This document shows positions 3,463 to 34,899 of a stretch of 42,914 nt of DNA, piece by piece. The notes under the pieces are model-generated. The model searched no databases, had not been told where the DNA came from, and saw nothing but the letters and a program-made list of their open reading frames with translations. This DNA is from an uncultured Muribaculaceae bacterium (GTDB lineage Bacteria; Bacillota_I; Bacilli_A; RF39; UBA660): NCBI GenBank assembly GCA_964518415.1, contig CAZFGE010000001.1:1-42914 (forward strand). Reading direction: 5' to 3'. Both the position numbers and the translations under genes were made by a program. Within the stretch, counting starts at the first letter, position 1; every line of letters begins with the position of its first letter.

Positions 3463-3781
3463 TATCCTTCCATATCATGTCATAGTACTCTAAAAACTCT
3501 TTTGTTTTTCTATTATTAATTGGAGTTGACTTACCAGTTAGTTTTATATCATATATTTTTTTAATTTTACTTGGTCTATTAGACATAACAATTACTCTAT
3601 CTGACATACTAATTGCCTCAGCTAAATCATGAGTAACCATAATCGCACTTTTTTTCTCGCGTTTAAGTATTTTATAAACATCATCAGAAACTTTAAGCCT
3701 TGTTTGATAATCAAGAGCGCTAAAAGGTTCATCTAAAAGCAAAATATCAGGCTTTATTGCGAGTGTCCTAATTAAAGCAAC
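3446..3781 (-). pseudogene. ABC transporter ATP-binding protein, C-terminal fragment (gene split by the inserted element)
   Basis: The minus frame reads VALIRTLAIKPDILLLDEPFSALD (Walker B) ... VTHDLAEA (H-loop). Walker A, Q-loop and signature motif are absent here and lie at 10747-11163. The M at 3742 in the ORF track is an internal TTG Leu codon. Confidence 0.9.
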
Positions 3782-3784
3782 TGT

Positions 3785-3806
3785 TTGAATAATTTATAGA
3801 CATTTT
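3785..3806. repeat. Left terminal inverted repeat (attP-derived arm in attL)
   Basis: ttgaataatttatagacatttt is the exact reverse complement of 10729-10750. Confidence 0.9.
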
Positions 3807-3858
3807 TTGCGTAAAGCAAATAAAAAATATTATTTTGTTAACTCAAAGTAAAAAATAG

Positions 3859-3867
3859 TGATATAAT
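3859..3867 (+). promoter_or_regulatory. Extended -10 promoter element for the element cargo operon
   Basis: TGaTATAAT at 3859-3867. The only TTG-type -35 candidate (TTGTTA, 3835-3840) is 21 nt away, so the promoter would rely on the extended -10. Confidence 0.35.
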
Positions 3868-3921
3868 GTAATTGTAGTATAGTCTAGACAGAATAGAATG
3901 GATTATTTAAACTACAATTAC
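3868..3921 (+). promoter_or_regulatory. Leader stem-loop upstream of the first cargo gene
   Basis: gtaattgtagt (3868-3878) pairs perfectly with actacaattac (3911-3921), an 11-bp stem with a 32-nt loop. It lies just upstream of the GGGAGG RBS. Confidence 0.3.
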
Positions 3922-3942
3922 AATATGTAGGGAGGTGAAGAC

Positions 3943-4599
3943 ATGAACAGAGGTAGAGGAAGAAGTAAAAGAGATGTCTTAACAATCATAGCTATTGTAG
4001 TTGGCTTTGTTGTTGTTGCACTTTCATATGCAACATTATCTAATACTCTTTCAATTTCATTTTCATCTGCAGTAAAACCTGATAGTTCTTCATTTAGTGT
4101 AGTACTATCTTCTAGCTCAACTTCAGTTGTAAATAATCCTGTTGTACCAGAATTAAATAAAACTGTAGCTGATTTTACTGCAACAGATGGAACTATTGAC
4201 AATAGTACTGATGCACCAAAACTTGAAAATATGCATGTTACTTTTACTGAACCTGGTCAATCAGTAACATACAAAGTATATGCACATAATACTGGAAAAT
4301 ATTTAGCTTATTTAAATAGTATTAATTTTTCTGGAAGTAAAACTTGTACTGCAAAAACTGGTACAAGTGAAACAATGGTAGCAGCTGCTTGTGATGGAAT
4401 TACTTATAGCGTTAAAGTAGGTGATGAAACAGCCACTAATACTTCAGTAACTGATATATCAGGACATGAACTTGGTAAAGAAGCTAATGAAGAAATTACT
4501 ATTGTAATTACTTATGAAACCGGTAGTGAACTTGCTGATGGTGACTTTGATGTAACATTACCAAGCGTAACACTAAATTATGATTCAGTTGATTTATAA
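3943..4599 (+). CDS. Secreted or surface protein with a basic N-terminus and single hydrophobic anchor (candidate SipW-type substrate, TasA/camelysin-like architecture)
   Basis: N-terminus MNRGRGRSKRD followed by TM helix and SYATLS motif, then a Ser/Thr-rich beta-rich domain. Strong RBS GGGAGGTGA. Immediately upstream of a SipW-like peptidase gene. Confidence 0.5.
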   Translation: MNRGRGRSKRDVLTIIAIVVGFVVVALSYATLSNTLSISFSSAVKPDSSSFSVVLSSSSTSVVNNPVVPELNKTVADFTATDGTIDNSTDAPKLENMHVTFTEPGQSVTYKVYAHNTGKYLAYLNSINFSGSKTCTAKTGTSETMVAAACDGITYSVKVGDETATNTSVTDISGHELGKEANEEITIVITYETGSELADGDFDVTLPSVTLNYDSVDL

Positions 4600-4617
4600 G
4601 ATTTAGGAGGATAAAAA

Positions 4618-5736
4618 ATGAAAATAAAAAATAAAGAATTTATTATTTTTACAATATTTTTGATAATTATTTTATCTATAAATATGATGATGACTCATTT
4701 TTTCTCCACCCATCTTATTGCTACTTTTTTAATTTTAACAATTATATTTTTTAAATATTATTTTATATTTGAAAAAAACTATGTTAAATATGAAGGAAAT
4801 GTAATCTTTGAAACAATTGTCTTTGTATCATCATTTTTTATTGTATATTATTTATTAGGATTAATAGTAGGTTTAACTAAAACAGGAAATTATTTTAACT
4901 TTTATAATTTAACATTTAGAATTGTTCCGGCTATTATTTATATAATACTAAGAGAAATTTTAAGATATAATATGATGAGAAAATGTGGTAAAAGTAAATT
5001 GTGTATGTTTTTGACTGTATTTTTATTTGTATTAATGGATTTATCATTCTATATTGCAAATATAGGTTTATATTCAAAACAGGATGTAATTAGATATTTA
5101 ACATTTACACTTATTCCAATTATATCTAAGAATTTAGCATTTTCATTTGTTATAAGGGATTGTGGTTATAAGCCAATTATTATATTTGATTTAATATTTA
5201 AACTATATCCATATATAATTCCTTATGTTCCAAATCCAAATGAATTTATGTCATCAATGATAAATATGATTACACCTATACTTTTTGCATTTAGAATTGA
5301 AAACTTTTATGTAATGAAAAATGAATATATTGAACATGGAGTTTATTTTAAAAGAAAAATAAATGATTATTTTGTTCCTGTTACATTAACAATAGTACTT
5401 GCCTATTTATTTAGTGGCTACTTTAGATATTATGCAGTTGTAGTTGCTAGTGAAAGCATGTTACCTTCACTTGAAGTTGGAGATTTAGTTGTACTTGATC
5501 AAAATAGTAGTACATATAAACGAGGTGACATAATTGCCTATAAAAAAAATAATAAAATAATTATTCATAGAATAAATAAAATTGTTGATATAGATGGTGA
5601 TGAGTACTATTATACAAAAGGTGATAGTAATAAAAGTATTGATGAATTCGTTGTTGAAAATGAAATGATTATAGGAAAAGTAAAATTTAAACTATCACAT
5701 ATTGGTTATCCTGCTGTATGGTTAAGTAGGAAGTAA
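4618..5736 (+). CDS. Signal peptidase I, SipW/archaeal-eukaryotic (S26B) type, fused to an N-terminal polytopic membrane domain of about 270 aa
   Basis: The C-terminal 100 aa carry SESMLPSL (Ser nucleophile box), GDIIAY, IIHRI (His box) and YTKGDSN. The N-terminal part has about 7-8 hydrophobic helices. AGGAGG RBS. Confidence 0.7.
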   Translation: MKIKNKEFIIFTIFLIIILSINMMMTHFFSTHLIATFLILTIIFFKYYFIFEKNYVKYEGNVIFETIVFVSSFFIVYYLLGLIVGLTKTGNYFNFYNLTFRIVPAIIYIILREILRYNMMRKCGKSKLCMFLTVFLFVLMDLSFYIANIGLYSKQDVIRYLTFTLIPIISKNLAFSFVIRDCGYKPIIIFDLIFKLYPYIIPYVPNPNEFMSSMINMITPILFAFRIENFYVMKNEYIEHGVYFKRKINDYFVPVTLTIVLAYLFSGYFRYYAVVVASESMLPSLEVGDLVVLDQNSSTYKRGDIIAYKKNNKIIIHRINKIVDIDGDEYYYTKGDSNKSIDEFVVENEMIIGKVKFKLSHIGYPAVWLSRK

Positions 5737-5751
5737 AGGAGTATGAATTGT

Positions 5752-6852
5752 ATGGATATAAAAGGATTTACACATAACTTGAATAATAAAATAAATAAAA
5801 AGAAAAATTTTGGATATTATGCTAAAATAGTTTCATTTTTATTAATTATAGTTATATTGATTATTGGTTTAAGTATTTTTCTTTCAATGTCATTTGCTGT
5901 TACAAAGAAAGATACAATTAAATATAGTGAAAAAGGTACAGTAGACTATAAAGTTTACTTAAAAGATAATACTTTTTATGAAACAAGCTATTTGGAAAAA
6001 GGAATGGCATATGTTGCTAGCTTAGTTGATAAAATAAGTATTGATTATCACTACTTATTTAATATTAGTAGAAAAGAAGATTTAAATTTTAATTATAAAA
6101 TTATTGGTAAACTGGTAATAAAAAGTCAAAATGACGAAACATCTTTTTATGAGAAAGAATATGATTTAACTGACTCAATTGAAAGAGATGTAGAAAAAGC
6201 CAAAAAATATGCAATAGATGAAAATATTATAATTGATTATAATTATTATAATGATTTATCAAGTAAGTTTAGAGCTAACTATGCAATAAACACAATAAGT
6301 TATTTGGAAGTTTATTTAGAGGTTAATGCTAAAACAAATAAAAGTTTAGGATATAAAGTTGATCACAAAAGTAAATCAATTGTTACAATTCCTCTTTCTA
6401 AACAAGAAGTAAATGTTACAGTAGACAATAAAGAAGCAAATAGTCAAAAAGAAATTAATATTGAGTCAAGATTAATACTTAAAAATAAATATTTCTTATT
6501 AGAGAGTTTTATCTTATTTGTATTTTTATGTTTTACATTATTTGAGTTATATAAAACATTACTAGGACATAATAAACGTAATAATACATATAATAAATAC
6601 ATAAGCAAAATATTAAGAGCATATGATAGAATAATTGTTGATGTTAAAGAACTTCCTGATTTAGAAAAATATGATATTATTGAAGTTAAGAATTTTGATG
6701 AGTTATTAGATTTAAGTGACAATCTTAAAAAACCAATTAGTTATTTAGAAGAAAAAGATATATGTAGTAAGTTCTTTGTAATTGATGGTAATGTTTTCTA
6801 TATTTGTGTAATAAGAGAATCTGAATTGGATGGTTCTAATAATGAAATTTAA
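5752..6852 (+). CDS. Bitopic membrane protein of unknown function (architecture resembles DUF5305-type partners of SipW loci)
   Basis: TM helix near residue 30, an extracytoplasmic domain of about 200 aa, a second TM (YFLLESFILFVFLCFTLF), then a cytoplasmic tail. ATG 5752 has better RBS spacing (AAGGAG 5736-5741) than ATG 5743 of the ORF track. Confidence 0.4.
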   Translation: MDIKGFTHNLNNKINKKKNFGYYAKIVSFLLIIVILIIGLSIFLSMSFAVTKKDTIKYSEKGTVDYKVYLKDNTFYETSYLEKGMAYVASLVDKISIDYHYLFNISRKEDLNFNYKIIGKLVIKSQNDETSFYEKEYDLTDSIERDVEKAKKYAIDENIIIDYNYYNDLSSKFRANYAINTISYLEVYLEVNAKTNKSLGYKVDHKSKSIVTIPLSKQEVNVTVDNKEANSQKEINIESRLILKNKYFLLESFILFVFLCFTLFELYKTLLGHNKRNNTYNKYISKILRAYDRIIVDVKELPDLEKYDIIEVKNFDELLDLSDNLKKPISYLEEKDICSKFFVIDGNVFYICVIRESELDGSNNEI

Positions 6853-9061
6853 AAAAAGAAAACAAAGAAAAAATATTACATATAATACAATTGTCATTGT
6901 ACTTACATTTATCATGTGTTTCTTATCAGTTGGTTATTGTGCTATGTCATCTGTTGATGTATTTGAAAGTCCTACAGTACTTGTATCTCCAAAAGCAGAT
7001 GTAAGAATTACTAATTTGGAATTATCAAGTACAAGTAATGGTGGAATAAGTAAGTCAGAAGATTACAACGTTGATAGAATAAATGGTTTAATTGATTTAC
7101 CTAATATAGATTCTACTGTTACATATAAAGTAGATATTACTGTATTTTTATCAAGTGAAATGCAACTTGATAATATTACAGGATTAAACCCTAATTTAAC
7201 ATATGAATTAGTTGATTATAATTTAGGTGAAGTACTTTGTAATACAAACAATGAATGTAATTTAGGGGCAGTTAAGGAGTTATATTTAGTTATTAAATAT
7301 AAAGATGGTTCATATGATAGTTCACATACTGAATATCCTTTTGAACTAAATTTTGAATTTAATCCAATAAATAAAGCTGCTAAAATAGATTATACATATT
7401 ATAATACTATTCAAGAAGCAATTGATAATGTTGAGGCTAATGGAGTTGAAAAAACAATATTTGTCTTACGTGAGAGACAAGAACTCTTAAAAATAAATTC
7501 TAATCAAAAAATTAAATTGAACTTTCAGGGTTATAAAGTAACTAATATTACAGAAAGACCAATAATAGAAAATTATGGTTTATTAACAATTCAAAATGCC
7601 AATTTATTATGCGATTCAACACAAGGTGCAATTAATAATTATAGTGGAGCAGAACTTAAAATATTTGATGGTAAAGTAATTGCAACAGGTGAGAAGCAAT
7701 CAATATATATAAAAGGTGGAAATGCAGAATTAGGTGGTAGTTTATATGTAAAAAACTCTAGTTCTATTAGAGCTTCTGTTCATAATGAAGGTGGATATTT
7801 AACAATATTAGGTGGAACATATATATCAGAGAACTATTCGGGTATATATAATAAAGGAACTTTAACAATTGGTACAAAAGATGGTAGTGTTAATATATCA
7901 AGTCCATTAATAATTGGTGATACATTTGGTTTAGAGACTACAAAAAATATTTCTTTTTATGATGGAGTTATAAAAGGAAAAACCGATTCAGTAAATGTTA
8001 AATCTAGACTATATAATTTGGAAGATGATTATAGTCCTTTATATGAGACAGAATTAATTGATGAGGTATTATATCATACTGTAATTCTTGATAAAGCAAA
8101 AATTGTTACATTTAATCCAAATGAAGGAACTGTTAATGAAACAACAAGACAGTATGAAAAAAATTCTTTACTTGGAGTTCTTCCTGTTCCGACAAAAGAT
8201 GATTATACATTTATTGGATGGTATACTCGCTTACATGGAGGAGAAAAAGTTGGTTTAGATACAGTTGTAACAGATAATATGGAATTATTTGCTCATTGGA
8301 AAAAGACAAGTACTATTAAAATTGCTCAAATTGAAGAAACAGGTAATAAGTATCATACATTACAAGATGCTATTGATGCAGCAAGTCCTTTTACAACAAC
8401 AGAAATAACCATTCTTCAAGATACATATGAAAATGTTATTGTAGATAGTAATAAAATTATAACATTTAAATTTGGTGATTATACATTATCAAGTATTGAT
8501 AATAGAGCTGTTATAACTAACTATGGAAAAGTAACTATGATAAGTGGTAGATTAACAACTCTATCTGAAAATAATGCTGCAGTAAATAATGAAGAAGGTG
8601 AATTTATAATATCTGGTGGATCTATTGTTGCAGCAGGTCAAAGACAAGCTATATATAATAATGGTGGTACGTTAACTATCACTGGAACAGCTTATTTAAA
8701 TAACTCTTCATCAGTAAGAGCTGCAGTACAAAATCAAAATACTAATAATAAAATAGGTAAAACATATATTACCGGTGGAACAATTGTATCTTTAAAACAA
8801 GAGGCAGTTAAAAATTTATCAGGAGAGTTATATATAGGTATTAAAAATGGAACAATTGACATAACAACTCCTATATTAAAAGGAGAAACATATGGTGTTA
8901 ATAATGCAAGTCAATTTAGTTTTTATGATGGTACAATAAAAGGTTTAATTCATACTGTAAATGGTAATGTAACATCAATAGAAGATAATGCAACTACTAT
9001 ATATACAACGGAAGTAATAAATAATAAAGAATATCGTGTAATATATTTAAAACAAGAGTAA
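6842..9061 (+). CDS. Large surface protein: N-terminal anchor, two beta-helix-like modules of about 220 aa, and one Listeria-Bacteroides (Flg_new) repeat
   Basis: Anchor KFKKRKQRK followed by TM and GYCAMS. Internal duplication between aa ~183-400 and ~497-715; both modules start with [TL]QEAID/QDAID and end with FYDGxIKG. FNPNEGTV...YTFIGWYT...FAHW matches the Flg_new repeat. The track start 6830 is an in-frame alternative. Confidence 0.6.
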   Translation: MKFKKRKQRKNITYNTIVIVLTFIMCFLSVGYCAMSSVDVFESPTVLVSPKADVRITNLELSSTSNGGISKSEDYNVDRINGLIDLPNIDSTVTYKVDITVFLSSEMQLDNITGLNPNLTYELVDYNLGEVLCNTNNECNLGAVKELYLVIKYKDGSYDSSHTEYPFELNFEFNPINKAAKIDYTYYNTIQEAIDNVEANGVEKTIFVLRERQELLKINSNQKIKLNFQGYKVTNITERPIIENYGLLTIQNANLLCDSTQGAINNYSGAELKIFDGKVIATGEKQSIYIKGGNAELGGSLYVKNSSSIRASVHNEGGYLTILGGTYISENYSGIYNKGTLTIGTKDGSVNISSPLIIGDTFGLETTKNISFYDGVIKGKTDSVNVKSRLYNLEDDYSPLYETELIDEVLYHTVILDKAKIVTFNPNEGTVNETTRQYEKNSLLGVLPVPTKDDYTFIGWYTRLHGGEKVGLDTVVTDNMELFAHWKKTSTIKIAQIEETGNKYHTLQDAIDAASPFTTTEITILQDTYENVIVDSNKIITFKFGDYTLSSIDNRAVITNYGKVTMISGRLTTLSENNAAVNNEEGEFIISGGSIVAAGQRQAIYNNGGTLTITGTAYLNNSSSVRAAVQNQNTNNKIGKTYITGGTIVSLKQEAVKNLSGELYIGIKNGTIDITTPILKGETYGVNNASQFSFYDGTIKGLIHTVNGNVTSIEDNATTIYTTEVINNKEYRVIYLKQE

Positions 9062-9078
9062 AAAAACTCTTGTTTTTT
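9051..9078 (+). terminator. Rho-independent terminator after the surface-protein gene
   Basis: Stem aacaagag (9051-9058) / ctcttgtt (9067-9074), then a T-run. Confidence 0.6.
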
Positions 9079-9208
9079 CATATTTTTAATTAGGGTGATT
9101 AAATGAAATATAATATTATAAATGTTATACCTGAAATATCTAATCAGGATATAAAAAAAATAGTAAATATAAAACTGATAAATTATATATTATTTATGGA
9201 GCAAAATA

Positions 9209-10741
9209 ATGAACAAGATATATAGAGTAGGAACATATTATAGATTATCTGATGAGGATAGAGAAAAAACGAGTGACTTTAGTGAGAGCATTAAAAATCA
9301 AAGAAACTTATTAATTGATTATATAAACATACATAATAATTTTATCTTAGTTGATGAGTATTGTGATGAAGATTTATCTGGAGCTGGAACATATAGACCC
9401 GAATTTGAAAGACTAATTAATGATTGTAAAAATGGCAAAATAGATATAGTATTATGTAAGAGTCAATCAAGATTTTCAAGAGATATGGAAATAATAGAAA
9501 AATATCTTCATAACTATTTTTTAGAATGGAATGTTCGATTCATAAGTATTGCTGATAATGCTGATACATCCAATCCCGGTAATAAGAAATCAAGACAAAT
9601 AAATGGACTTGTAAATGAGTGGTATTTAGAGGATGTATCAAATAATATAAGAAGTGCTTTTAAATCAAAAATGCAACAAGGCGAGTATATTTCTCCTTTT
9701 GCGCCATATGGATACTTAGTATCTAAAACAAATAATAACAAAATAGAAATTGATTATGATGCAAGTTTAATTGTAAAAGATATATTTAATTTGTATTTAA
9801 AAGGATATGGATATAAAAAAATTGCAGATATATTAAATTATAAAAATATTCCAAGTCCTTCTTATTATAAATATAAAAAAGGCGTAAAACTAAATGTTGT
9901 AAGTAATAAGAATAGATGTGATATAAAGTGGTCTAGTAATGCAATAAAAACAATTTTAACAAATGAGGTATATATTGGAAACTTAGTTCAAGGAAAGAGA
10001 ACTACAATTAGTTATAAAAATCATAAAATAATTAATAAAGATAAAAGTATGTGGATTAAAAGATGCAATACGCATGATGCTATTATAGATTCAAAAACAT
10101 TTTATAAAGTAAAAGAAGAAATAAAAAAAAGATCAAAGATATCAACAAAAACAAATATGGTACATATATTTTCAGGTAAAGTTTTTTGTGAAACCTGTAA
10201 TAAAAAATTAAGAAAGAAAAATTCTAAAAATCATAGTTACTTAGTATGTGAAAATTGTATAAATAAAAAATCAATTAGATATGATTGTTTAGAGAAAATA
10301 ATATTAGAATGTATTAATAACATTCTTATGAAAAACTTTGATATATCACTATTAAAATGTGAATTAAAAAAAAGATATAAGTCTAACACATTAGAATTAT
10401 TAAAAAAAACAAAAGAAAAAATAACAAAACAAAAAATGAATAATAAAGAGTATTTAAAAAATATTTATATAGATAAAGTAAAGGGGATTATAAATAATAA
10501 CCAGTTTAAAGAATTACTTAAAACATTTAATCAAGAATTATATAAAATCAATAATCAAATAAATGAATTAGAGTTAAAAATAAAAAAATATTCTGAAAAA
10601 ATTGATTTAAATAAATATCATAAAATAAAAACATTAAATAGATATATTGTAGATGAATTCATTGAAAAGATATATATTGGTCCAATTAATAGTTTAAATA
10701 CACGAGATATAAAGATTATTTGGAACATAAAATGTCTATAA
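9209..10741 (+). CDS. Large serine recombinase (SpoIVCA/TnpX/CcrB class)
   Basis: 510 aa. N-terminal resolvase domain with YYRLSDED (Ser nucleophile candidate) and SRFSRD. Central recombinase domain. Zinc ribbon CETCNKKL...CENC. Lys/Glu-rich coiled-coil tail. The stop codon lies inside the right terminal repeat. Confidence 0.9.
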   Translation: MNKIYRVGTYYRLSDEDREKTSDFSESIKNQRNLLIDYINIHNNFILVDEYCDEDLSGAGTYRPEFERLINDCKNGKIDIVLCKSQSRFSRDMEIIEKYLHNYFLEWNVRFISIADNADTSNPGNKKSRQINGLVNEWYLEDVSNNIRSAFKSKMQQGEYISPFAPYGYLVSKTNNNKIEIDYDASLIVKDIFNLYLKGYGYKKIADILNYKNIPSPSYYKYKKGVKLNVVSNKNRCDIKWSSNAIKTILTNEVYIGNLVQGKRTTISYKNHKIINKDKSMWIKRCNTHDAIIDSKTFYKVKEEIKKRSKISTKTNMVHIFSGKVFCETCNKKLRKKNSKNHSYLVCENCINKKSIRYDCLEKIILECINNILMKNFDISLLKCELKKRYKSNTLELLKKTKEKITKQKMNNKEYLKNIYIDKVKGIINNNQFKELLKTFNQELYKINNQINELELKIKKYSEKIDLNKYHKIKTLNRYIVDEFIEKIYIGPINSLNTRDIKIIWNIKCL

Positions 10742-10750
10742 ATTATTCAA
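10729..10750. repeat. Right terminal inverted repeat (attP-derived arm in attR)
   Basis: aaaatgtctataaattattcaa is the exact reverse complement of 3785-3806. It contains the recombinase stop codon (10739-10741). Confidence 0.9.
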
Positions 10751-11163
10751 GCAACTCTTTGTCTCATACCTCCTGATAGACTACTTGGATAACTATTAAT
10801 AAAATCTTTAAGTCCATATGTTTTAAGTAAATTCATTACATATTCTTTATTTGAACTTGTTAATTCACCCTTTATCTCAAGTCCAAGTAGACAGTTTTTA
10901 TAAATGGTTCTAAAGTCAAGTAGACTATCATCTTGTAACATATATCCAATATTATTATCTTTGCTATATTCAATACTACCTTCTGATTTATCAAGTAATC
11001 CACATAGTATAGATAAAATTGTTGACTTCCCACATCCACTAGGCCCTACAATAGATACAAATTCTCCTTCTTTTAAATTAAAAGAGAAATCTTTAACAGC
11101 TTCTATCTCAGCATCTTTAGTATGGTATATTTTTTTTAAGTTTTTAATTTTTAAAATATCCAC
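10747..11163 (-). pseudogene. ABC transporter ATP-binding protein, N-terminal fragment (gene split by the inserted element)
   Basis: Walker A GPSGCGKST, Q-loop region MLQDD, signature LSGGMRQRVA. A TGA supplied by element DNA follows immediately. Confidence 0.9.
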
Positions 11164-11223: not shown

Positions 11224-11257
11224 CTAAAAAAAGGAAATAAATTATTTGTTTATTTCC
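11224..11257 (-). terminator. Rho-independent terminator of the glycosyltransferase gene
   Basis: Stem aggaaataaa (11231-11240) / tttatttcct (11248-11257), with a T-run on the minus strand (complement of 11224-11230). Confidence 0.6.
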
Positions 11258-12330
11258 TTTAATATTATTTTTTTATTATCCTTTAGTCTTTTAATATTTG
11301 GACTTATTTTAATTGCTTTATCAATACATTCTAAAGCCTCTTTATAATTGTTTTCATAAAAGTAAGCAACTGATAATAAATCATAAATAGTATGATCCCA
11401 GCTAAATACTTCATTTATATATGATTTATAATGTGTTTTAATTTTTAAAGCTTCATTACAGTAAAATATTACATCTTTATAATTACCTAACTTATATTCT
11501 AAAAGAGCACGTTCTACAAAACTATCACGTAGATATGGAGCTTCTTTTATTGCTTTATCTAGCCACATTCTTGCCTCATCATATCTTTTTAATGCTTTAT
11601 ATGAACGAGCTATAAATCTCATTGATGCACATCGCTCATCTTTCCATGTCGCGCTTTTTAAATTTAAATGTTTAATTAGCGTATCTATTGCTTTATTCCA
11701 TTTTCTATAATACATATATTCTCTTCCTAAATAATGCATATTTCTATCATCTTCAGGATCTTCTTTTACTGATAGTTCTAATAAGGGTAAATAATTAGAT
11801 CTAGATTTTGTTTTATCTGGATAATGATTAACTGTAATATTGTCAGTATATACTTTTATTTCTTTTTTATTACCAATATATTTTAATGTTTCATGTACAG
11901 GATGAATCCAAATATAATCGTCTCGACTATGTATTTTTTCAATGTAAAAATTAACTTTTGGCGTGTTATTTTCATCTAATATCCAATTATAGTTATAAGC
12001 TAATCTAGTTGTATAAGTATTCCATGTTTTCTCAAGTTCATCTCTCCATCCTGGATTAAATACTTCATCTAAATCAGTACATACGCATATATCAGCATCC
12101 ATTGGTACCATAGAAAGTGACTCACATCTTGCTTTATCAAATCTCCAAGGTGTAATAATGTGCTCTTTAACATGAATGTTATGTTCTTTTAATTTTTTAA
12201 CAGTATTATCTGTTGAGCCTGTATCTAGGACATATATTTCATCTGCTTCTTTCATTGATTCATACCATTTATCTACATGTTTTTCTTCATTTTTACTTAT
12301 GGCATATACACAAACTTTGTATTTTTTCAT
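11242..12330 (-). CDS. Family-2 glycosyltransferase with C-terminal TPR repeats
   Basis: N-terminal GT-A signature (VCVYAISKNEEKHV...LDTGSTDNT...CTDLDE). The C-terminal half has TPR-like Y/A/L periodicity. Directly downstream of, and co-oriented with, the collagen-like gene. Confidence 0.7.
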   Translation of the reverse strand: MKKYKVCVYAISKNEEKHVDKWYESMKEADEIYVLDTGSTDNTVKKLKEHNIHVKEHIITPWRFDKARCESLSMVPMDADICVCTDLDEVFNPGWRDELEKTWNTYTTRLAYNYNWILDENNTPKVNFYIEKIHSRDDYIWIHPVHETLKYIGNKKEIKVYTDNITVNHYPDKTKSRSNYLPLLELSVKEDPEDDRNMHYLGREYMYYRKWNKAIDTLIKHLNLKSATWKDERCASMRFIARSYKALKRYDEARMWLDKAIKEAPYLRDSFVERALLEYKLGNYKDVIFYCNEALKIKTHYKSYINEVFSWDHTIYDLLSVAYFYENNYKEALECIDKAIKISPNIKRLKDNKKIILKEINK

Positions 12331-12332
12331 AT

Positions 12333-12935
12333 TTATGGAGTAGGACCAGTTGGACCTTGTGGAATTGTTAGATTTAGGACAAAGTTAGGCGCAGTTCCTG
12401 TAATAGTTGCTGCAGCATCAGTACCAGGATCCCCAGTTGTAACTGTACCAATTGTAAGTGTTGGTGTTTCACCATCAATACCAGCGGGACCAGTAGGACC
12501 GATTTCTCCAGCAGGACCAGTAGGACCGGTAGGACCAGTAGGACCAGTAGCTCCGTCAACACCATCAATACCAGCAGGACCAGTAGGACCAATTTCTCCA
12601 GCAGGACCAGCAGGTCCAGTAGGGCCAGTAGCTCCGTCAACACCATCAATGCCAGCAGGACCAGTAGGTCCAATTTCACCTTCAGGTATAGTAAAGTCTA
12701 AAATAACATCTTCATCAGTACCAACATTTGTAACAAGTGCATCAGTACCAGCTGCTCCAGTTGTTGTTGTACCAATAGTGATAGTAGCAGGTCCTGCAGG
12801 ACCAGTAGGTCCAGTAGGTCCTATAATTACTTGACTCATACCGTTTAGACATTTTCTATCTCTTTTAATTTTTTCATATACACGTTCTAAATTTCTACCA
12901 CATCTATCATCACAACAATTTAAATTATCATTCAT
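12333..12935 (-). CDS. Collagen triple-helix repeat protein (BclA-like exosporium/surface glycoprotein candidate)
   Basis: Runs of [14 protein letters not shown] triplets interrupted by two paralogous Thr-rich beta segments ([28 protein letters not shown] and [28 protein letters not shown]). Cys-rich N-terminal region. Confidence 0.85.
12472..12680 (-). repeat. Tandem DNA repeat inside the collagen-like gene (90-bp unit, 81-bp unit, partial third unit)
   Basis: Units start with ccatcaata/ccatcaatg at 12472, 12562 and 12643. They encode [23 protein letters not shown]... and differ by three GXY triplets. Confidence 0.85.
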
Positions 12936-13036
12936 AAAATATCTCCTTTCTAACTTATTTTATGAATCATTATTACCACTGATAATTAATATAGTCTAAA
13001 TTAAAGTAAGATGAATAAAATTAAATAGGTGATTAT

Positions 13037-13849
13037 ATGTCAAAGATAGGTGTAATATCTGATGTACATGCAAATATAGATGCTCTAGAGTTAGTACTTA
13101 AAGATATGGAGATAAATGGTGTTGATGAAATTATTTGTTTAGGTGATTTAGTAACTAAGTATTTTTATCCAAAAGAGAGTGTAGATGCTATTAAAGAGAA
13201 TTGTTCTATTGTAGTAAAAGGTAATTGTGATGATTTAGTAGCTAATGATGAGAGATATAAATATGCAAGAGGAAAACTAGGACTTAGTAGAATTGAATAT
13301 TTAGATAATCTACCACTTAGTTATAATATGAAACTAAATAATGTAAATTTTAACATGTTTCATGCAACACCAAACTCATTAGATAAAATATTTAATCCAT
13401 TATTTTTAAAAAATGAATTGACGCCTTATAAAGACAAAATAATAACTGATCCAAATGAAATGTTTAAGAGTGATAATGAGGTAGTATTGTGTGCTCATAC
13501 ACATCAAAGCTATGTTGGAAGAGTTAAAGATAATGAGTTTAAACTACTTATGAACAATGTCATTTTAGAAGGTGATGAAAAAGTAATTATAAATGTTGGT
13601 AGTGCGGGTGAACATAGTCACATGACATGTTTTAATGATAAGGTAGAAACTATAATAGATCCTATTTTAACGTATCTAACTATTGAAAATATGAATGACT
13701 TTTTATATGCAAGAATTAAGTATGTTCCATATAAAGAAACGTTAAAAAAGGTCTATTTAGATATTTTAAAAAAAGAGCGTGAATCACTTATACCATATTC
13801 TCCAAGAGATAAAGAGAAAATAGAGAAGTCTCTTAAATTAATGAGGTAA
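13037..13849 (+). CDS. Metallophosphoesterase (YfcE/MJ0936-like calcineurin-fold phosphoesterase)
   Basis: Motifs GVISDVHAN, CLGDLV, GNCD, CAHTH, GSAG in canonical order. Confidence 0.75.
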   Translation: MSKIGVISDVHANIDALELVLKDMEINGVDEIICLGDLVTKYFYPKESVDAIKENCSIVVKGNCDDLVANDERYKYARGKLGLSRIEYLDNLPLSYNMKLNNVNFNMFHATPNSLDKIFNPLFLKNELTPYKDKIITDPNEMFKSDNEVVLCAHTHQSYVGRVKDNEFKLLMNNVILEGDEKVIINVGSAGEHSHMTCFNDKVETIIDPILTYLTIENMNDFLYARIKYVPYKETLKKVYLDILKKERESLIPYSPRDKEKIEKSLKLMR

Positions 13850-13852
13850 TTT

Positions 13853-14887
13853 ATGAATATATTTAAAATTATAAAAACAAAAATATTATATAAAAAATCA
13901 TTTAAAGATGAAGTGATTAATCCTTTAAATGTAAGCTTTTTAAATTTAATAAAAAAAACAGATAAATATAGAAGTATAGGAGTTGAATTTGTTAAAAGTA
14001 GAAAGTATGCAGTAGTTATTATGGCAGGTGGAATGGGTAGTAGACTAGGATTTGATATTCCAAAAGGTTGCATTAAAATAAATGATAAATCTTTATTTGA
14101 AATATATGTTGATAATTTAAAAAAAATTAATAATGAATTAAATATAGAAATTCCTATATATATCATGACATCAAAAAATAACAACAATTCCACACAAAAC
14201 TTTTTTAAAAGTAATAATTTCTTTAGTTATCCACAAGATAAAGTTAAATTTTTTATTCAAGATGAACTTCCTATTTTAAATAAAAGTGGAAAAGTAATAA
14301 AAGAGAGAAAATCTATATTAATGGGACCAAATGGTAATGGAGATGTATTTAAGTCTTTAAAAAGAAATAATTTAATAAATGATATGAAATTAAATAATAT
14401 TGAATATGTTTTATTTGTTAATATAGATAATCCTCTAAATAATTTAATTGATTTTGACTTTATAGGAGCAACTATAGCTAAAAAATATAAATTATCATCT
14501 AAAACTATTAAGCTAGATAAACCAAATGAATGGATATTTATAAAATATAATAAAAGACCTTATATGTTACCTTTGGGTTATATAGGTAAGTTTTTTAATA
14601 AATTAGTAAATGGTGAATACTTATATAGATATAAAAACATTTCATATCATTTAATACATATAGATTTAATTGAAAAGTTTTCTAAAATTAATCTTAAATA
14701 TCATAGAGCATATAAGCTAACTAAAATAGATAAAGATAAAGAAATTGAATCATTTAAATTTGAAAAGTTTATATTTGATGCATTTTACTATGCAGATGAT
14801 ATGTTATTATATGAGACAGATAATAAAGAATTTTATCCAATAAAAACAAATAAAGATTTAAATCAATTAAAAAAAAATAACCTTTAA
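13853..14887 (+). CDS. UDP-sugar / UDP-N-acetylhexosamine pyrophosphorylase (UDPGP family, eukaryotic-type UAP-like)
   Basis: MAGGMGSRLG...PKG nucleotide-binding loop. MTS...FF..Q..LP and GPNGNGDVFKSL motifs parallel UAP1/UDPGP enzymes. Confidence 0.7.
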   Translation: MNIFKIIKTKILYKKSFKDEVINPLNVSFLNLIKKTDKYRSIGVEFVKSRKYAVVIMAGGMGSRLGFDIPKGCIKINDKSLFEIYVDNLKKINNELNIEIPIYIMTSKNNNNSTQNFFKSNNFFSYPQDKVKFFIQDELPILNKSGKVIKERKSILMGPNGNGDVFKSLKRNNLINDMKLNNIEYVLFVNIDNPLNNLIDFDFIGATIAKKYKLSSKTIKLDKPNEWIFIKYNKRPYMLPLGYIGKFFNKLVNGEYLYRYKNISYHLIHIDLIEKFSKINLKYHRAYKLTKIDKDKEIESFKFEKFIFDAFYYADDMLLYETDNKEFYPIKTNKDLNQLKKNNL

Positions 14888-14889
14888 GG

Positions 14890-15708
14890 TTATTTTATTG
14901 TTTCTAATATTTTATTATTATTTATTTCTTTTAGACTTTTTTTAGGTGTTGGTAATTCCTCAGGCATAGTACCACCATTTTTCTTTATAACATCACGAAC
15001 ATTTTTACCAACTTCATAGTGGGCTTTATTTGCATTTATCTGACCATTTATTTTTTCATTTTTAATTTTAGATTCAGTTTGTACTATTCTAAATAGATTA
15101 TCAGCAAGTTCTTCACTTCCCATGTTATCTAGTATATCTTCTCTATAGCGAAGATTTTTTCTTTTAGCTATATCATTTGCAGTCTCACCATTATAAAGTC
15201 CTTTATATCCAGCATTATGAAATTTATCAAAATTCTTAACTCCTGCTTTTAAAGCGGCTTGATTTAATTCATAGTTTCCCAATTTGGTTAAACTTCTTAT
15301 GTATAATCTTTTTTCATCTTCTGATAATTTATTATACGCACTTTCTAATATTTCTTGACGTCTAGTTTGTATAGCAAAATAGGTTTGAGCAAGTGCTACT
15401 ACTTCTTTCCTAGAATCAGCATTTTGAGCAATTAGGTAACATGCATAACGAGATAATTTATAGTCATTTACTTTTCTTTTTGCACTCTTAGCTATATTTA
15501 TCATTCCGCTCATATGGACGAAATGATCTGTTATTTTTTGATTACTTTTTATGCATGCATCAATAGCTTTTTTTATAACAGGTAAAAATTTTCTATACTC
15601 AGTATATTCTAATACTTTTTGAAGTTCTCTTGCACTCCAGTATTCATTATCATCTTCATCAATATGTTTAATATTATCAAATAATATTTTATTTTCAAGT
15701 TTAGTCAT
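14890..15708 (-). CDS. dinD: DNA-damage-inducible protein D
   Basis: Collinear similarity to E. coli DinD: YWSARELQKVLEY, DHFV, KLSRYACYLIAQNADSRKEVVALAQTYFAIQTRRQE. Confidence 0.8.
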   Translation of the reverse strand: MTKLENKILFDNIKHIDEDDNEYWSARELQKVLEYTEYRKFLPVIKKAIDACIKSNQKITDHFVHMSGMINIAKSAKRKVNDYKLSRYACYLIAQNADSRKEVVALAQTYFAIQTRRQEILESAYNKLSEDEKRLYIRSLTKLGNYELNQAALKAGVKNFDKFHNAGYKGLYNGETANDIAKRKNLRYREDILDNMGSEELADNLFRIVQTESKIKNEKINGQINANKAHYEVGKNVRDVIKKNGGTMPEELPTPKKSLKEINNNKILETIK

Positions 15709-15791
15709 ATAAACCCTCCTTTGTGATTGCTTATTATATATAATTGTTATGTTGATATTTGTTGAATAGTGTTAATAATTTATTTTTATTT

Positions 15792-15819
15792 AAAAAAAAC
15801 ACTTACATTTGTAAGTGTT
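15792..15819 (-). terminator. Rho-independent terminator of the substrate-binding-protein gene
   Basis: Stem aacacttac (15798-15806) / gtaagtgtt (15811-15819), with a minus-strand T-run (complement of 15792-15797). Confidence 0.7.
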
Positions 15820-15823
15820 TAGT

Positions 15824-16798
15824 TTATATGTTTTTAACTAATTTATTATAGTCAACAAATTTATCTAATTCTTTTGCATTTTTAATAATCTCTTCTATGT
15901 GTTCAAAATCTTTTTTATCAATATAAGTAGTATCATACCAAGCATCTATATCCATATAGTTTTGAACCATTTTCTCTAAATCATTTATAGATGAATCAGG
16001 AAAATAACTACTAATTTTTAAAGCAACATCATGAGCACTATTTTTATGAATATAATTTAAGGCTTTATTAATAGCTGTTTTAAATCCTTTTAATTCTTTT
16101 AAATGTTTATCAATATAACTTTTCTTAGCGTTATAAGCTGTATATGGAACATCTCCTCCAAGTTTTCCAACAGAAGCTACAATATAACCATATCCTTGAT
16201 TAACAAGGCTAGTTGCAGTTGGTTCAAATAAAGCAACAAAGTCTCCATTACCACCTATAAAAGCACCAGTTGTTGCGCTAAAGTCATAACTAGTATCAAA
16301 ATTCATATCAGTAGTTTTAAGTCCATTTTTATTAATTGCATATTCAAGCGTCATAGCAGGCATTCCAGCTTTCCTTCCAGCTATTATGTGTTTTCCCTTT
16401 AAGTCACTTACCTTAAAGTTTTTAATTTTTTCTCTTGAAACTAAGAAACTACCATCTCTTTTAGTTAAGCCTGCAAAGTTAACTAAATAGTCTTTCTCAC
16501 CATTCTTATATACATATATAGTTGCTTCACTACCACAAAATCCAATATCTACATCACCTGATAATACACTAGCTGTTACTTTATCCGCACCAGGTGTTAG
16601 AATAAATTCAACATCCAATCCTTCATCTTTAAAGTAACCTAATGAATCAGCTAAATATTGTGGTGCATAAAAAATAGAGTGAGTAACTTCAGCTACCTTA
16701 ATCTTTTTAAGTGAATTATTTTCATCTTTTCTTTTAATTAAAATAGCTGTTGATATAATTACTAAAATAAGAACAATAGGTATAAATATTTTCTTCAT
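15824..16798 (-). CDS. ABC transporter substrate-binding protein, NMT1/THI5-like (SsuA/TauA/ThiY-type)
   Basis: N-terminal signal anchor and a periplasmic-binding fold of about 300 aa. Same transporter family as the permease and ATPase at 2668-3781 and 10747-11163. Confidence 0.75.
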   Translation of the reverse strand: MKKIFIPIVLILVIISTAILIKRKDENNSLKKIKVAEVTHSIFYAPQYLADSLGYFKDEGLDVEFILTPGADKVTASVLSGDVDIGFCGSEATIYVYKNGEKDYLVNFAGLTKRDGSFLVSREKIKNFKVSDLKGKHIIAGRKAGMPAMTLEYAINKNGLKTTDMNFDTSYDFSATTGAFIGGNGDFVALFEPTATSLVNQGYGYIVASVGKLGGDVPYTAYNAKKSYIDKHLKELKGFKTAINKALNYIHKNSAHDVALKISSYFPDSSINDLEKMVQNYMDIDAWYDTTYIDKKDFEHIEEIIKNAKELDKFVDYNKLVKNI

Positions 16799-25437: not shown

Positions 25438-27000
25438 ATGATACTTAGAAAACCTTATGCAATATTAATTAAAAATTTTAAACTTATACATTTAATTTTA
25501 TCAGGTTTAATGTTATATTTACTTTTTAAGACATATAATATTTATGTTTTTTTAGGAGAATATTTAAAGACTATAGCTACAACTATAAGTAGTGATGTTA
25601 CTAAATCATTATTTGGATTTTTACCTGTAATTGTAAGTGCTTTTATAATTATATTTTGTTTAATTATATTTGCCTTGATGAAATTCAAAGATAAGCCTGT
25701 AAAATCATATTTTTATAGTATTATTGCTTATATAGCTTTTATAGTTTATTATTTAATAACTTTTTCAACTGTTAAGTCACTTGAGATAAATTTAGTTGAT
25801 GTTAGAACTTTAAAAATTCTTAGAGATTTAACTACAGTTGCTTTAATAGTTGAGTCAATTGGGTTTGTAATTGTATTAATTAGATCTACTGGATTTGATG
25901 TTAAAAGCTTTAACTTTAAAAAAGATTTAGAAGATTTAAATATTGAAACAGAAGACTCAGAAGAGTTTGAAGTTAATACTGAGATTGATACATCAAAACT
26001 TAAAAGATATGTTAAGAAAAAAATTAGACATTTTAAATATGCATATTTTGAAAATAAATTATTAATAAATATTTTAATGGTTATTGTTATTTTATTAGTT
26101 GGTGGCTTAGTTTATTATAACAAGGCAGTTGTTCATAAAAGATATAATATGAATGAAGCGTTATCTACATCAAGATTTAATTTTGTGTTTGAAGATTCAT
26201 ATGTTACTAAGTATGATTACAAACATAATTTAATTAGTGATGAAGAAGAAATACTTGTTGTAAGATTTAAAGTTAAAACATTATTTGGATATGCAAATAT
26301 AGGACTTGGTCATTTCCAACTTCTAATAGATGGTTTTAAATATCATAATCAATTAAATTTAAAAGATGATGTTTTAGATTTTGGCGAAGTATTTAATGAT
26401 CAAAGAATTAAAAAAGATTATCAAGAGTTCATATTAGTATTTAAGATCCCTACTGAATTTGAAAATAAAAAAATGAAATTAAAATATTTTGATACATTTA
26501 AAACTTATACAGTTAATATTAATCCGAAACCATTAAATAATACAGTTGATACTAAAACATATAATCTTGGAGAGACAATTGATTTTAAAGATTCTATATT
26601 AAAAAATACAAGCATTACATTAAAGAGTGTGAATATAGATAGTAGTTTTAAATCAGAATATAAGTCTTGCTATAATACATGTGCTACATATTATGAGTAT
26701 ATTGTTCCAAGTACAAATAATGGAGCTTCTAAAATTTTAAAATTAGATGGTTCTCTTAATTACACAGATTTAAATGATAAAATTAATACCTTATTTAAGT
26801 TTTTAAAAACATTCGCAACTATTAAATATTCAAATGGTTCTGAAATAAGTACTATGAATATAGGTATTAATCAAGTTAAACCTAAGAAGGGGAATGATTC
26901 ATCTTTATATATTGAGTTAACTGAAGAAGCGGCAAGCGCTGAACATTTGTCGATTGAGTTTAATATTAGAGGAAAAATGTATGCTTATAGTGTAAAATAA
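25438..27000 (+). CDS. Polytopic membrane protein with a C-terminal extracytoplasmic beta-rich domain (unknown function; first gene of the long co-directional block)
   Basis: 520 aa: about 5 N-terminal TM helices, an acidic linker, one more TM, then a hydrophilic domain of about 300 aa. Confidence 0.5.
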   Translation: MILRKPYAILIKNFKLIHLILSGLMLYLLFKTYNIYVFLGEYLKTIATTISSDVTKSLFGFLPVIVSAFIIIFCLIIFALMKFKDKPVKSYFYSIIAYIAFIVYYLITFSTVKSLEINLVDVRTLKILRDLTTVALIVESIGFVIVLIRSTGFDVKSFNFKKDLEDLNIETEDSEEFEVNTEIDTSKLKRYVKKKIRHFKYAYFENKLLINILMVIVILLVGGLVYYNKAVVHKRYNMNEALSTSRFNFVFEDSYVTKYDYKHNLISDEEEILVVRFKVKTLFGYANIGLGHFQLLIDGFKYHNQLNLKDDVLDFGEVFNDQRIKKDYQEFILVFKIPTEFENKKMKLKYFDTFKTYTVNINPKPLNNTVDTKTYNLGETIDFKDSILKNTSITLKSVNIDSSFKSEYKSCYNTCATYYEYIVPSTNNGASKILKLDGSLNYTDLNDKINTLFKFLKTFATIKYSNGSEISTMNIGINQVKPKKGNDSSLYIELTEEAASAEHLSIEFNIRGKMYAYSVK

Positions 27001-30959: not shown

Positions 30960-31814
30960 ATGAATAATTTCGTAATAGCAATTAGAAGATTTTTCCAAAA
31001 CAAAAATACAGTAACAGTTATAGGAGTAATTCTTATATTAGTTGTATTATTTGTTGGATACAAAATTCAAATCAACAAAGCAGTAGAACCAGTATCAGGT
31101 ATACCAGTTGCTACTCAAACAATTCAACCAAGAACATTGATTGAAAATGATATGGTATCAACTATTCAAGTTGCACCTATCGTATTATCTGATAATGTAA
31201 TCAGATCAAAAGCCGCAGTAGTTGGAAAATATACAGCTGTAAATACAGTAGTTCCAGAAGGAAGTATGTTTTATAAAAATACAGTTGTAACAAAAGATGA
31301 ACTTCCAGATGCTGCATTTGTAGATATCGAAAAAGGACAAATACCATATAACTTCCCAGTTACTATGGCATCAACTTATGGTAACTCAATTTATCCAGGA
31401 AATTACATTGATATTTATATGAAATCAATGAATGAAAATGGAGAGTTAATGGTTGGTAGATTAATCGAAAATGTTAAAGTATTAGCAGTTAAAGATTCTC
31501 AAGGAAAGAATGTATTTGAAAATTCTGAAGAAACAAGAGTTCCTGCATATATAATCTTTGGATTAGATTATGAATTAAATATTTTACTTAGAAAAGCAAG
31601 TTACATGGATGAATTCCAAGTAGAATTATTCCCAGTGCCACATGGTACACAAGTTAAAACTGGCGATGGTGAGACTATCGTAAGTAGTCAAACATTAAAA
31701 GATTTCATAAATGCTAATACAGTACCTAACGATGAAATAACTGCTCAACAAGAAACTGATGCAGCAAAAGAAACTGTAACAGATACTACTAAAAACACTA
31801 AAAAAGAAAGCTAG
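30960..31814 (+). CDS. CpaB/RcpC-like Flp pilus assembly protein
   Basis: N-terminal TM. SAF-like segment (IQPRTLIENDMV...VVGKYTAVNTVVPEGSMF). PGNYIDIY and ENVKVLAV segments typical of CpaB. Immediately upstream of the secretion ATPase. Confidence 0.55.
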   Translation: MNNFVIAIRRFFQNKNTVTVIGVILILVVLFVGYKIQINKAVEPVSGIPVATQTIQPRTLIENDMVSTIQVAPIVLSDNVIRSKAAVVGKYTAVNTVVPEGSMFYKNTVVTKDELPDAAFVDIEKGQIPYNFPVTMASTYGNSIYPGNYIDIYMKSMNENGELMVGRLIENVKVLAVKDSQGKNVFENSEETRVPAYIIFGLDYELNILLRKASYMDEFQVELFPVPHGTQVKTGDGETIVSSQTLKDFINANTVPNDEITAQQETDAAKETVTDTTKNTKKES

Positions 31815-31820
31815 GTCTAA

Positions 31821-32963: not shown

Positions 32964-32975
32964 GGAGGATAAAAT

Positions 32976-34669: not shown

Positions 34670-34670
34670 A

Positions 34671-34698
34671 TTAGAACATATAATGTTCTAATTTTTTT
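34671..34698 (+). terminator. Rho-independent terminator after the TadC-like gene
   Basis: Stem ttagaacat (34671-34679) / atgttctaa (34683-34691), then T7. Confidence 0.7.
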
Positions 34699-34836
34699 GT
34701 CTTCTTTTATTTTGTCGAATTGCTTAATTATATATTTTTTGATTTTAAAATTATTACAAGATGCTTTTGATAAATTAGAAGATAAAAAAAGTTAATAATA
34801 TAATTTGTCAATAATTGTAAAGAATATAAATTATAT

Positions 34837-34865: not shown

Positions 34866-34899
34866 ATTATTGTAAAAATATAATAAGGGTGGTGAGATA

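Follow-up and report, generated by a model that had tools for sequence, protein, structure and literature searches.

Positions 3943-9061 of the analyzed stretch of DNA (42,914 nt in total, here called the window; all coordinates are positions in it on the forward strand) probably represent an operon for an extracellular fiber of the TasA superfamily, closest to the AbpX type. Its four genes encode a small and a large putative fiber subunit, a signal peptidase I with a fused polytopic membrane domain, and a DUF5305 protein. Together with a gene for a large serine recombinase, the operon makes up an element that splits the ATPase gene of an ATP-binding cassette (ABC) importer. The type of locus is already known, its architecture having been in print in January 2026. 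What seems to be new is a large branch without curated models in uncultured Firmicutes from gut and rumen, and the finding that a gene-splitting serine-recombinase element carries a complete fiber kit and no other cargo. TasA-like fibers, which are assembled by donor-strand exchange, increasingly emerge as a scaffold of biofilms common to bacteria and archaea, and the operons described here belong to uncultured Bacilli and Clostridia of the gut and rumen.

The four-gene operon and its signal peptidase

As had been predicted originally, the four open reading frames (ORFs) form one operon. They are co-oriented on the plus strand, are spaced by 18 bp, 6 bp, and then a 23-bp overlap, and are followed by a terminator-like hairpin at the 3' end (Table 1). 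Promoter-like matches do not occur more often in the AT-rich DNA of the window than in shuffled sequence, and the upstream site listed in Table 1 is therefore consistent with a promoter at best. The GC content is about 25% across the whole window, and the element shows no contrast. Hidden Markov model (HMM) searches against Pfam and NCBIfam yielded matches above the cut-offs to Peptidase_S24/S26, DUF5305, and Flg_new; neither Peptidase_M73 (TasA/camelysin) nor any other Pfam or NCBIfam model matched the small protein.

Table 1. Positions of the operon, of the surrounding element, and of the split ATPase gene in the window.
Feature	Position	Strand	Remarks
Small protein, 218 aa	3943-4599	+	putative major fiber subunit
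Signal peptidase I, 372 aa	4618-5736	+	aa 1-262 polytopic, aa 266-372 ER/SEC11-type catalytic
DUF5305 protein, 369 aa	5743-6852	+	putative peptidase partner
Large protein, 743 aa	6830-9061	+	Flg_new; large subunit, putative tip adhesin
Promoter-like site, TTAACT / 18 nt / TG-n-TATAAT, extended -10	3838-3867	+	best sigma-70-like consensus match upstream of the operon
Intrinsic-terminator-like hairpin, 11-bp stem and T run	9049-9076	+	overlaps the stop codon of the last gene; ends the operon
ABC ATPase, C-terminal half, Walker B and H-loop	3446-3782	-	resumes ...A/LIRTLAIKPDILLLDEPF... at the junction (slash)
Left 8-bp core AAGCAACT	3775-3782		recurs at the right junction; presumed crossover region
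Left 20-bp terminal inverted repeat GAATAATTTATAGACATTTT	3787-3806
Large serine recombinase, 510 aa	9209-10741	+	Resolvase, Recombinase, Zn ribbon, and DUF4368 domains
Right 20-bp terminal inverted repeat AAAATGTCTATAAATTATTC	10729-10748		perfect reverse complement of the left repeat
Right 8-bp core AAGCAACT	10749-10756
ABC ATPase, N-terminal half, Walker A to LSGGMRQRVA	10747-11163	-	stop codon arises at the junction
Reconstructed attB junction	...GAGACAAAGAGTTGCTTTAATTAGGACAC...		predicted excision product
Reconstructed attP junction	...TAAATTATTCAAACAGTTGCTTGAATAATTTA...		predicted excision product

The assignment of the second gene product to the SipW/endoplasmic reticulum (ER) type of signal peptidases was borne out. 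Residues 253-369 match Peptidase_S24 and Peptidase_S26, both over the Pfam cut-offs, and the NCBIfam model for ER/archaeal-type signal peptidase I (TIGR02228, S26B) reaches 84.2 bits at residues 255-369, compared to a cut-off of 51.85. The motifs SESM, IIHRI, and TKGDSN are present, and S280, M281, H317, R318, G335, D336, and D342, including the catalytic Ser and His, are unchanged in an alignment of 101 sequences. The family profile matches human SEC11A at E 5e-17, and SEC11A and SEC11C at E ~1e-16. Because the invariant Ser, His, and Asp motifs align with those of SEC11A/C (SGSMEP, VHR, and KGDNN in SEC11A), the enzyme uses the same Ser-His chemistry as SipW and SEC11. Judged from its sequence, the enzyme is an ER/SEC11/SipW-type Ser-His signal peptidase, which would cleave the neighboring proteins. 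It is not a SipW ortholog, since it scores just 54.5 bits with the SipW equivalog model NF046067, far under the cut-off of 190. SEC11A/C (PDB 7P2P, 7P2Q) are the best matches of the catalytic domain in sequence as well as in structure, the latter in a Foldseek search with the AlphaFold model, and have the same Ser-His-Asp residues. In the SEC11 complex the catalytic subunit works with separate membrane-spanning proteins, whereas in the enzyme of the window eight helices are fused on and the DUF5305 protein is a separate candidate partner.

A polytopic domain of about 270 aa had been postulated in front of the catalytic domain. It is indeed polytopic, and its exact size is 262 aa. The AlphaFold model of the peptidase (mean predicted local distance difference test score, pLDDT, of 83.5) contains nine helices (residues 3-26, 31-49, 59-84, 95-123, 127-145, 154-182, 185-200, 209-235, and 243-265) followed by a beta domain (266-372). 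In the extra domain, eight helices are thus added to the normal anchor helix, and a C-terminal membrane helix is absent from the model. Basic residues are concentrated in alternate loops of the membrane domain, and therefore a topology with the N-terminus inside and the catalytic domain outside fits and is predicted. Invariant residues of the N-terminal domain are G81, E113 and R116 (in REILRYN), P202 and P205 (in PxxPNP), and P220, and further invariant polar residues within the helices bring this group to E113, R116, D141, and N172. The domain matched no Pfam family even at E 10 and no solved fold in a Foldseek search, and residues 1-250 matched no Pfam or NCBIfam model. A CPBP/CAAX-type or other known membrane enzyme was considered and rejected, because conserved His motifs are lacking in addition to the negative Pfam and PDB fold searches; the likeness in the RExxR motif is superficial.

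The fused peptidase belongs to a large family. A search of 5.8 billion proteins retrieved 184 homologs with identities down to 26%, nearly all of them 370-385 aa long. When only the N-terminal domain was used, an exhaustive profile search yielded 1,434 clusters (50% identity level) at E <= 1e-3, which is a minimum for the size of the family, and 947 at E <= 1e-10. Since almost all full-length matches of this domain are 365-390 aa long, fusion to the peptidase is the rule. In a scan of one genome per species, 370 matched stretches encode a relative of the peptidase; the best 80 of these 370 loci stem from uncultured metagenome-assembled genomes, mostly labeled Bacilli, Erysipelotrichaceae, Tenericutes/Mollicutes, or Clostridia; rumen or gut is given as the source in many record titles. 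The fusion recurs beside similar substrates in other genomes, and a sequencing error that joined two genes is ruled out by hundreds of homologs with identical layout and length. The domain was also found once in another context: in the 812-aa protein P0330, a polytopic N-terminal domain (aa 1-259) is joined to Metallophos and 5'-nucleotidase C-terminal domains. In L004/L005, too, the kit is directly followed by Metallophos genes, and in the window such a gene (13037-13849) is located close to the element.

In the original prediction the fusion was called unusual. This is true relative to Bacillus SipW only, as the architecture is common and has been noted in a preprint of January 2026. The fusion is not new, because many-helix signal peptidases and DUF5305 partners have been reported at such loci (10.64898/2026.01.04.697558). 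Pfam and NCBIfam contain no models for the subunit family or for the eight-helix domain of the peptidase.

Candidate substrates, the DUF5305 protein, and known fiber loci

The small protein has a basic N-terminus, a single hydrophobic helix, the motif SYA/TLSNTLSIS (here and below, a slash in a protein motif marks the predicted cleavage site), a beta-sandwich, and two invariant Cys residues. Its family, with a length of about 213 aa, is better conserved than the peptidase and follows the N-terminal pattern basic region, helix, and LGYA/AFSxTLTISSSAEV, then PGQS-TY-F-A-NAG and the two invariant Cys residues. The strand behind the motif, TLSNTLSIS in the protein of the window, reads YA/AFSSTLTISSSAE in most relatives. 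Its second position is aromatic in 102 of the 106 members of the family, the window protein having a Leu, and the isoelectric point (pI) of the mature protein is 4.24 (family median 4.06). An acidic pI and an aromatic residue at position 2 are both hallmarks of AbpX. The AlphaFold model of the monomer (pLDDT 90.5) is a beta-sandwich, and the top Foldseek matches include the TasA fiber 8aur (E 0.016, probability 0.95, template modeling score (TM) 0.33) and AbpA 7ueg (E 0.037, probability 0.92). A type IV pilin-like signal was rejected, because the hydrophobic helix is preceded by the charged residues and followed by the conserved motif, which is the layout of signal peptidase I substrates.

The large protein carries a signal motif of the same class, VGYC/AMSS, followed by a beta-rich N-terminal domain. 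Its single Flg_new domain (aa 426-489) lies between two repeats of about 240 aa, which are 34% identical. The family pattern is L-S-[IV]-G-[FYW]-[SA]-[AS]-F, then DIRIT, then LPNxDSxVTYKVxVTNxGNxEM. Both proteins had been proposed as substrates on the basis of their N-terminal motifs and of a shared SVTYKV strand. Motifs and strand are kept within each family, which is in agreement with this proposal, but the two families show no significant homology to each other (see below). Of 750 co-oriented ORFs located up to 6 kb from the peptidase gene, 86 have the motif G-[FYW]-[AS]-x-[FYLM]-[STN] behind a hydrophobic stretch, compared to 4 of 907 other ORFs of the same loci. The enrichment is about 26-fold, which is a minimum, as variants like GYALTT escape this pattern. 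Being conserved in homologs and enriched near the peptidase, the two signal motifs of the window are family-wide features.

The remaining gene product matches PF17231 (DUF5305) with 49.7 bits, the gathering cut-off being 29. It had been described as bitopic, which was not confirmed, since two hydrophobic, membrane-spanning segments (22-55 and 249-275) were found. They enclose an outer domain (about aa 56-248) and are followed by a cytoplasmic C-terminal domain, and this two-span architecture agrees with the published description (10.64898/2026.01.04.697558). In a survey of 87 homologous loci, the DUF5305 gene lies directly 3' of the peptidase gene in 84; in searches with single sequences, 39 of these loci showed a homolog of the small protein and 32 a homolog of the large one. 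The compact four-gene operons, together with natural variants that lack the DUF5305 gene, are well suited for asking why some fiber-dedicated signal peptidases carry a large membrane domain and a DUF5305 partner.

In Bacillus, SipW processes the fiber proteins TasA and TapA. As in the window, the tapA-sipW-tasA operon of Bacillus subtilis encodes a dedicated ER-type Ser-His peptidase beside two substrates, one of which is a donor-strand-exchange fiber subunit and the other a larger accessory protein, comparable to the pair described here. The cleavage motif of TasA, TWA/AFND, is similar to that of the proteins in the window. However, SipW is only about 190 aa long and lacks the eight extra helices of the 372-aa peptidase, a DUF5305 gene is present in the window and not in tapA-sipW-tasA, and no TapA homolog was detected in the window. 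The analogy to the Bacillus system, on which the original prediction was built, holds, and the many-helix peptidase and the DUF5305 partner match the AbpX-type branch.

AbpX represents a branch of the TasA superfamily, the fibers of which are built by donor-strand exchange (10.64898/2026.01.04.697558). The same study describes AbpX-linked signal peptidases I with ten membrane helices in bacteria and archaea alike, loci in which genes for minor subunits, tip proteins, and a DUF5305 protein are common, and a proposed role of DUF5305 as an accessory subunit of the peptidase (10.64898/2026.01.04.697558). A DUF5305 partner and a large "tip" protein are likewise encoded in the loci of the window family. 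The Pyrodictium abyssi peptidase encoded beside abpX has 380 aa, compared to 372 aa in the window, and both enzymes combine a polytopic N-terminal domain with a C-terminal catalytic domain; nine helices are modeled for the peptidase of the window, in contrast to the ten reported. The catalytic domain of the P. abyssi enzyme matches the window family with a probability of 99.4% at the same C-terminal position, and the motifs GxxxG, RExxR, and PxxP of the membrane domains follow each other in the same order and at nearly equal distances (32/32 and 89/88 residues). The subunits resemble each other, too, with a sequence similarity that is borderline. AbpX has about 215 aa and a long signal peptide ending with ...YA, directly followed by an amphipathic strand. 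Mature AbpX starts with QWSETLSLSATIS after ...LTYA, where the window protein has SYA/TLSNTLSIS, and the strand reads QWSETLSLS in AbpX compared to AFSSTLTIS or TLSNTLSIS here; position 2 is aromatic and the pI is about 4 in AbpX and in the window family. An hhalign comparison of the small-protein family with AbpX, represented by five close Pyrodictium-type sequences with no bacterial AbpX among them, gave E 1.7e-4 over 173 collinear columns (probability 49%). In contrast, the two cysteines are placed otherwise in AbpX, the strand has an acidic residue at position 4 there and not here, the hosts here are uncultured gut and rumen Bacilli, and the locus lies on a recombinase element, unlike AbpX loci.

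A related arrangement has been described for the Tat-fimbriae of haloarchaea, for which the taf cluster encodes the subunits TafA/C/E, the peptidase TafD, and the DUF5305 protein TafG (PMC11821415). It was shown genetically that TafD processes a fiber subunit, and assembly by donor-strand exchange was proposed (PMC11821415). Like the kit of the window, the taf cluster thus combines its own signal peptidase I and a DUF5305 protein at a fiber locus. However, the Taf subunits use the twin-arginine translocation (Tat) pathway, while the signals in the window look Sec-type, and TafD has four helices, an N-terminal catalytic domain, and an extra C-terminal domain, whereas the extra domain is N-terminal and has eight helices here.

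A model of fiber assembly and competing explanations

For this locus we infer a cleavage position, fiber formation, a donor-strand mechanism, and a role of the extra helices, which would be connected as follows. The 218-aa protein as the major subunit and the 743-aa protein as the terminal or adhesin subunit would enter the membrane via Sec, each of them being held there by its long N-terminal hydrophobic helix. The peptidase, with its catalytic domain facing outward and held by nine membrane helices, would cut both directly after the conserved G-[YFW]-[A/S/C] motif, probably acting together with the two-pass DUF5305 protein. The cut would expose an N-terminal strand (TLSNTLSIS here, AFSxTLTIS in most relatives), which would enter the beta-sandwich of the next subunit by donor-strand complementation and in this way build the fiber; the large protein, which carries a similar strand, would join one end of it. 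For the extra helices we favor either the docking of substrates or a function as a built-in counterpart of the eukaryotic accessory subunits.

Several findings weigh against this reading, and some of them are what would be expected if the kit merely processed ordinary surface or secreted proteins, monomeric or cell-attached, without forming a fiber. Membership of the small protein in the TasA/camelysin family is not indicated by any sequence model: neither the window protein nor 30 relatives nor 10 distant relatives matched any Pfam or NCBIfam model, and the profile of the family matched no PDB sequence. The fold matches are weak (E ~0.02, TM ~0.33) and are accompanied by many generic beta-sandwiches, such as carbohydrate-binding modules and glycosidase domains. 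At position 4 of the strand, where AbpX has an acidic residue as part of a calcium site, 55 of 106 family members have S, 45 have N, and only 3 have D; the probability of the hhalign match to AbpX is just 49%. The membership of the small protein in the TasA superfamily fold is thus unproven. In a profile comparison, the N-terminus of the large protein was not significantly homologous to the small-protein family, and the N-terminal domain of the peptidase is not significantly similar to that of P. abyssi (hhalign E 0.22; 7.2 bits in an HMM search, though at rank 1 of 2,670). The DUF5305 gene is missing in the two closest relatives, L013 (1-3048) and L169 (338-4379), in which the order is small protein, peptidase (51-52% identical), and large protein with no DUF5305 gene in between; therefore, DUF5305 is not always encoded in the operon. 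About 80 of the 87 homologous operons have no recombinase nearby, and no anchor or nucleator (TapA, a sortase, or an LPXTG protein) was found in the operon, neither in the ORF list nor with Pfam. Nevertheless, ordinary processing is an unlikely explanation, as a conserved amphipathic strand follows the cleavage motif of the small and the large proteins in hundreds of loci, the full-length alignment to AbpX is collinear, and a dedicated peptidase together with DUF5305 has otherwise been reported only at fiber loci of the TasA superfamily.

Two further explanations concern parts or the context of the kit. The 262-aa polytopic domain might have a separate activity, as a transporter, a lipid or glycan handler, or an intramembrane protease, and be fused to the peptidase for co-expression only. 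The invariant polar residues within its helices, the conserved PxxPNP loop, the lack of any match to known families or solved structures, and its linkage to Metallophos and 5'-nucleotidase domains in P0330 would fit this explanation, which we nevertheless regard as improbable: full-length matches of the domain are nearly always fused to a peptidase and have a fixed length, it substitutes for the usual membrane anchoring in an enzyme without a C-terminal helix, it has no conserved His/Glu metalloprotease motif or other catalytic signature, and the predicted position of its two best-conserved loops is the outer face, next to the catalytic domain. Still harder to accept is that the kit is not a host fiber but an accessory of conjugative or other mobile DNA, e.g., a mating adhesin or a surface-exclusion structure. 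In three loci (L001-L003) the kit lies directly downstream of type IV secretion/conjugation genes, Tad/type IV secretion system-like genes are present in the window at about 31-43 kb, and two or three types of serine recombinases flank the kit in several loci. However, most loci have ordinary chromosomal neighbors and lack transfer genes over a distance of 10 kb, neither PLSDB plasmids nor IMG/VR viral contigs contain the kit, and the 7-kb element is devoid of transfer genes.

The recombinase element and the split ATPase gene

The prediction that the kit travels as the cargo of a site-specific recombinase element is supported by perfect inverted ends, an 8-bp core, related elements inserted at the same codon, and an intact target gene in closer relatives. 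Because the core is present at both junctions and perfect 20-bp inverted repeats lie just inside of it, the element extends over about 6.97 kb (~3783-10756). It contains only the four-gene operon and the recombinase gene, the stop codon of which is located within the right inverted repeat. The target is the ATPase gene of an NMT1-type ABC importer, and the rejoined gene reads QRVA-LIRTLAIKPDILLLDEPF, as in intact orthologs. The only small candidate for a directionality factor is a 39-codon ORF (9104-9223) between the operon terminator and the recombinase start, which it overlaps in another frame; it may have this function, but in AT-rich DNA it might just as well have arisen by chance.

The recombinase is not an ortholog of XisF or CcrB, because its 95 bits with both models are far under the cut-offs of 375 and 900. 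Its identity to phage integrases does not exceed 33%, and an exact look-up of its sequence gave no match. No relatives of the peptidase or the recombinase were found in IMG/VR viral contigs, and no peptidase in PLSDB plasmids, so that a prophage or plasmid origin of the element was rejected.

In other species, related elements occupy the orthologous ATPase gene at the same codon (...QRV[GA]) in three further loci, L035 and the near-identical L020/L046. Their recombinases are 58-69% identical to that of the window, and they have similar inverted ends and a different gene order. In L046 an additional RhuM and Fic/DOC gene (3658-4623, minus strand) lies between the junction with the C-terminal ATPase half and the fiber genes. 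In L035 the recombinase gene (7792-8991) occupies the other end of the element, in inverted orientation to the cargo; the called ORF has just 399 aa, and its frame crosses the junction near 7798 and ends in host sequence (...ITFKELL, then stop). Intact operons for binding protein, ATPase, and permease are present in the metagenomic relatives L089-L092, and the sequence at the site is nearly identical to the reconstructed attB. A neighbor-joining tree of the permease, a single-gene tree without support values, pairs occupied with empty loci (window/L090, L035/L089, and L046/L091). The patchy occupancy therefore points to repeated gain or loss.

The element-type arrangement is restricted to about 4 of the 87 loci. 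Elsewhere, the kits have an ordinary chromosomal context, adjoin other recombinases (L021, L083), or lie next to conjugation genes (L001-L003). The peptidases of element-borne kits are 34-44% identical to that of the window, compared to 45-52% for kits off elements, and thus the cargo of the window is no closer to element-borne kits. In L021 (201-1505) and L083 (6654-8258), different, distantly related large serine recombinases are encoded directly upstream of the fiber kits, which suggests that the kit is repeatedly associated with recombinase-bearing DNA. The close relative L081 has other genes at the position of the recombinase.

Gene-splitting elements with large serine recombinases are well known, e.g., skin with SpoIVCA, SPbeta, and the fdxN element with XisF, and small transposons of this type are represented by Tn5397 with TndX and Tn4451 with TnpX. 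Like the gene-splitting elements, the element of the window has a single large serine recombinase gene at one end within a coding sequence, its precise excision is predicted to restore the gene, and inverted repeats flank a short core. In contrast to the elements named, the target is an ABC ATPase gene, and the cargo is a fiber operon without phage or resistance genes. The large serine recombinase would drive the element, and a single integration or excision event would therefore add or remove the fiber trait and break or restore the importer. In this way the capacity for adhesion or biofilm formation could be gained or lost in one recombination, the cost or benefit being an importer that is switched oppositely.

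It is rather doubtful whether the element goes beyond this and is a conserved reversible switch between "fiber on, importer off" and "fiber off, importer on", with the recombinase excising the operon, rebuilding the ATPase gene, and being able to re-insert the operon. In favor of a switch, both ATPase halves keep open frames and intact catalytic motifs in at least three lineages that have diverged by about 40%, and the divergence of the recombinases is about equal to that of the host genes. The intact ATPase halves fit either recent independent insertions or a regular reconstitution of the gene. If the switch existed, it would be a skin-like gene-splitting element for the phase variation of the surface; unlike for skin-type elements, no link to sporulation is evident, as no sporulation genes were seen in the window.

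The importer operon of the window is disrupted a second time (11242-16798). The gene for the NMT1-type binding protein abuts the ATPase gene in L089, L090, L092, and L122, while in the window (15824-16798) it is about 4.6 kb away from the N-terminal ATPase half. The genes in between encode a glycosyltransferase 2-tetratricopeptide repeat (GT2-TPR) protein and collagen-like, Metallophos, UDPGP-family, and Bro-N proteins. The collagen-repeat (GPT) protein and the GT-TPR protein are neighbors (11242-12935), and the same pair is present in L046 (688-2155; GT-TPR 68% identical) on the other side of the ABC operon. The pair resembles exosporium BclA-type gene pairs. Further downstream, two large ORFs without a Pfam match (25438-27000 and 27718-30528) precede a cluster (30960-42700) encoding RcpC/CpaB-like, CpaF-type secretion ATPase, TrbL_4-like, and VirB4/TraG-like P-loop proteins, which may be a Tad-pilus or conjugative-transfer region.

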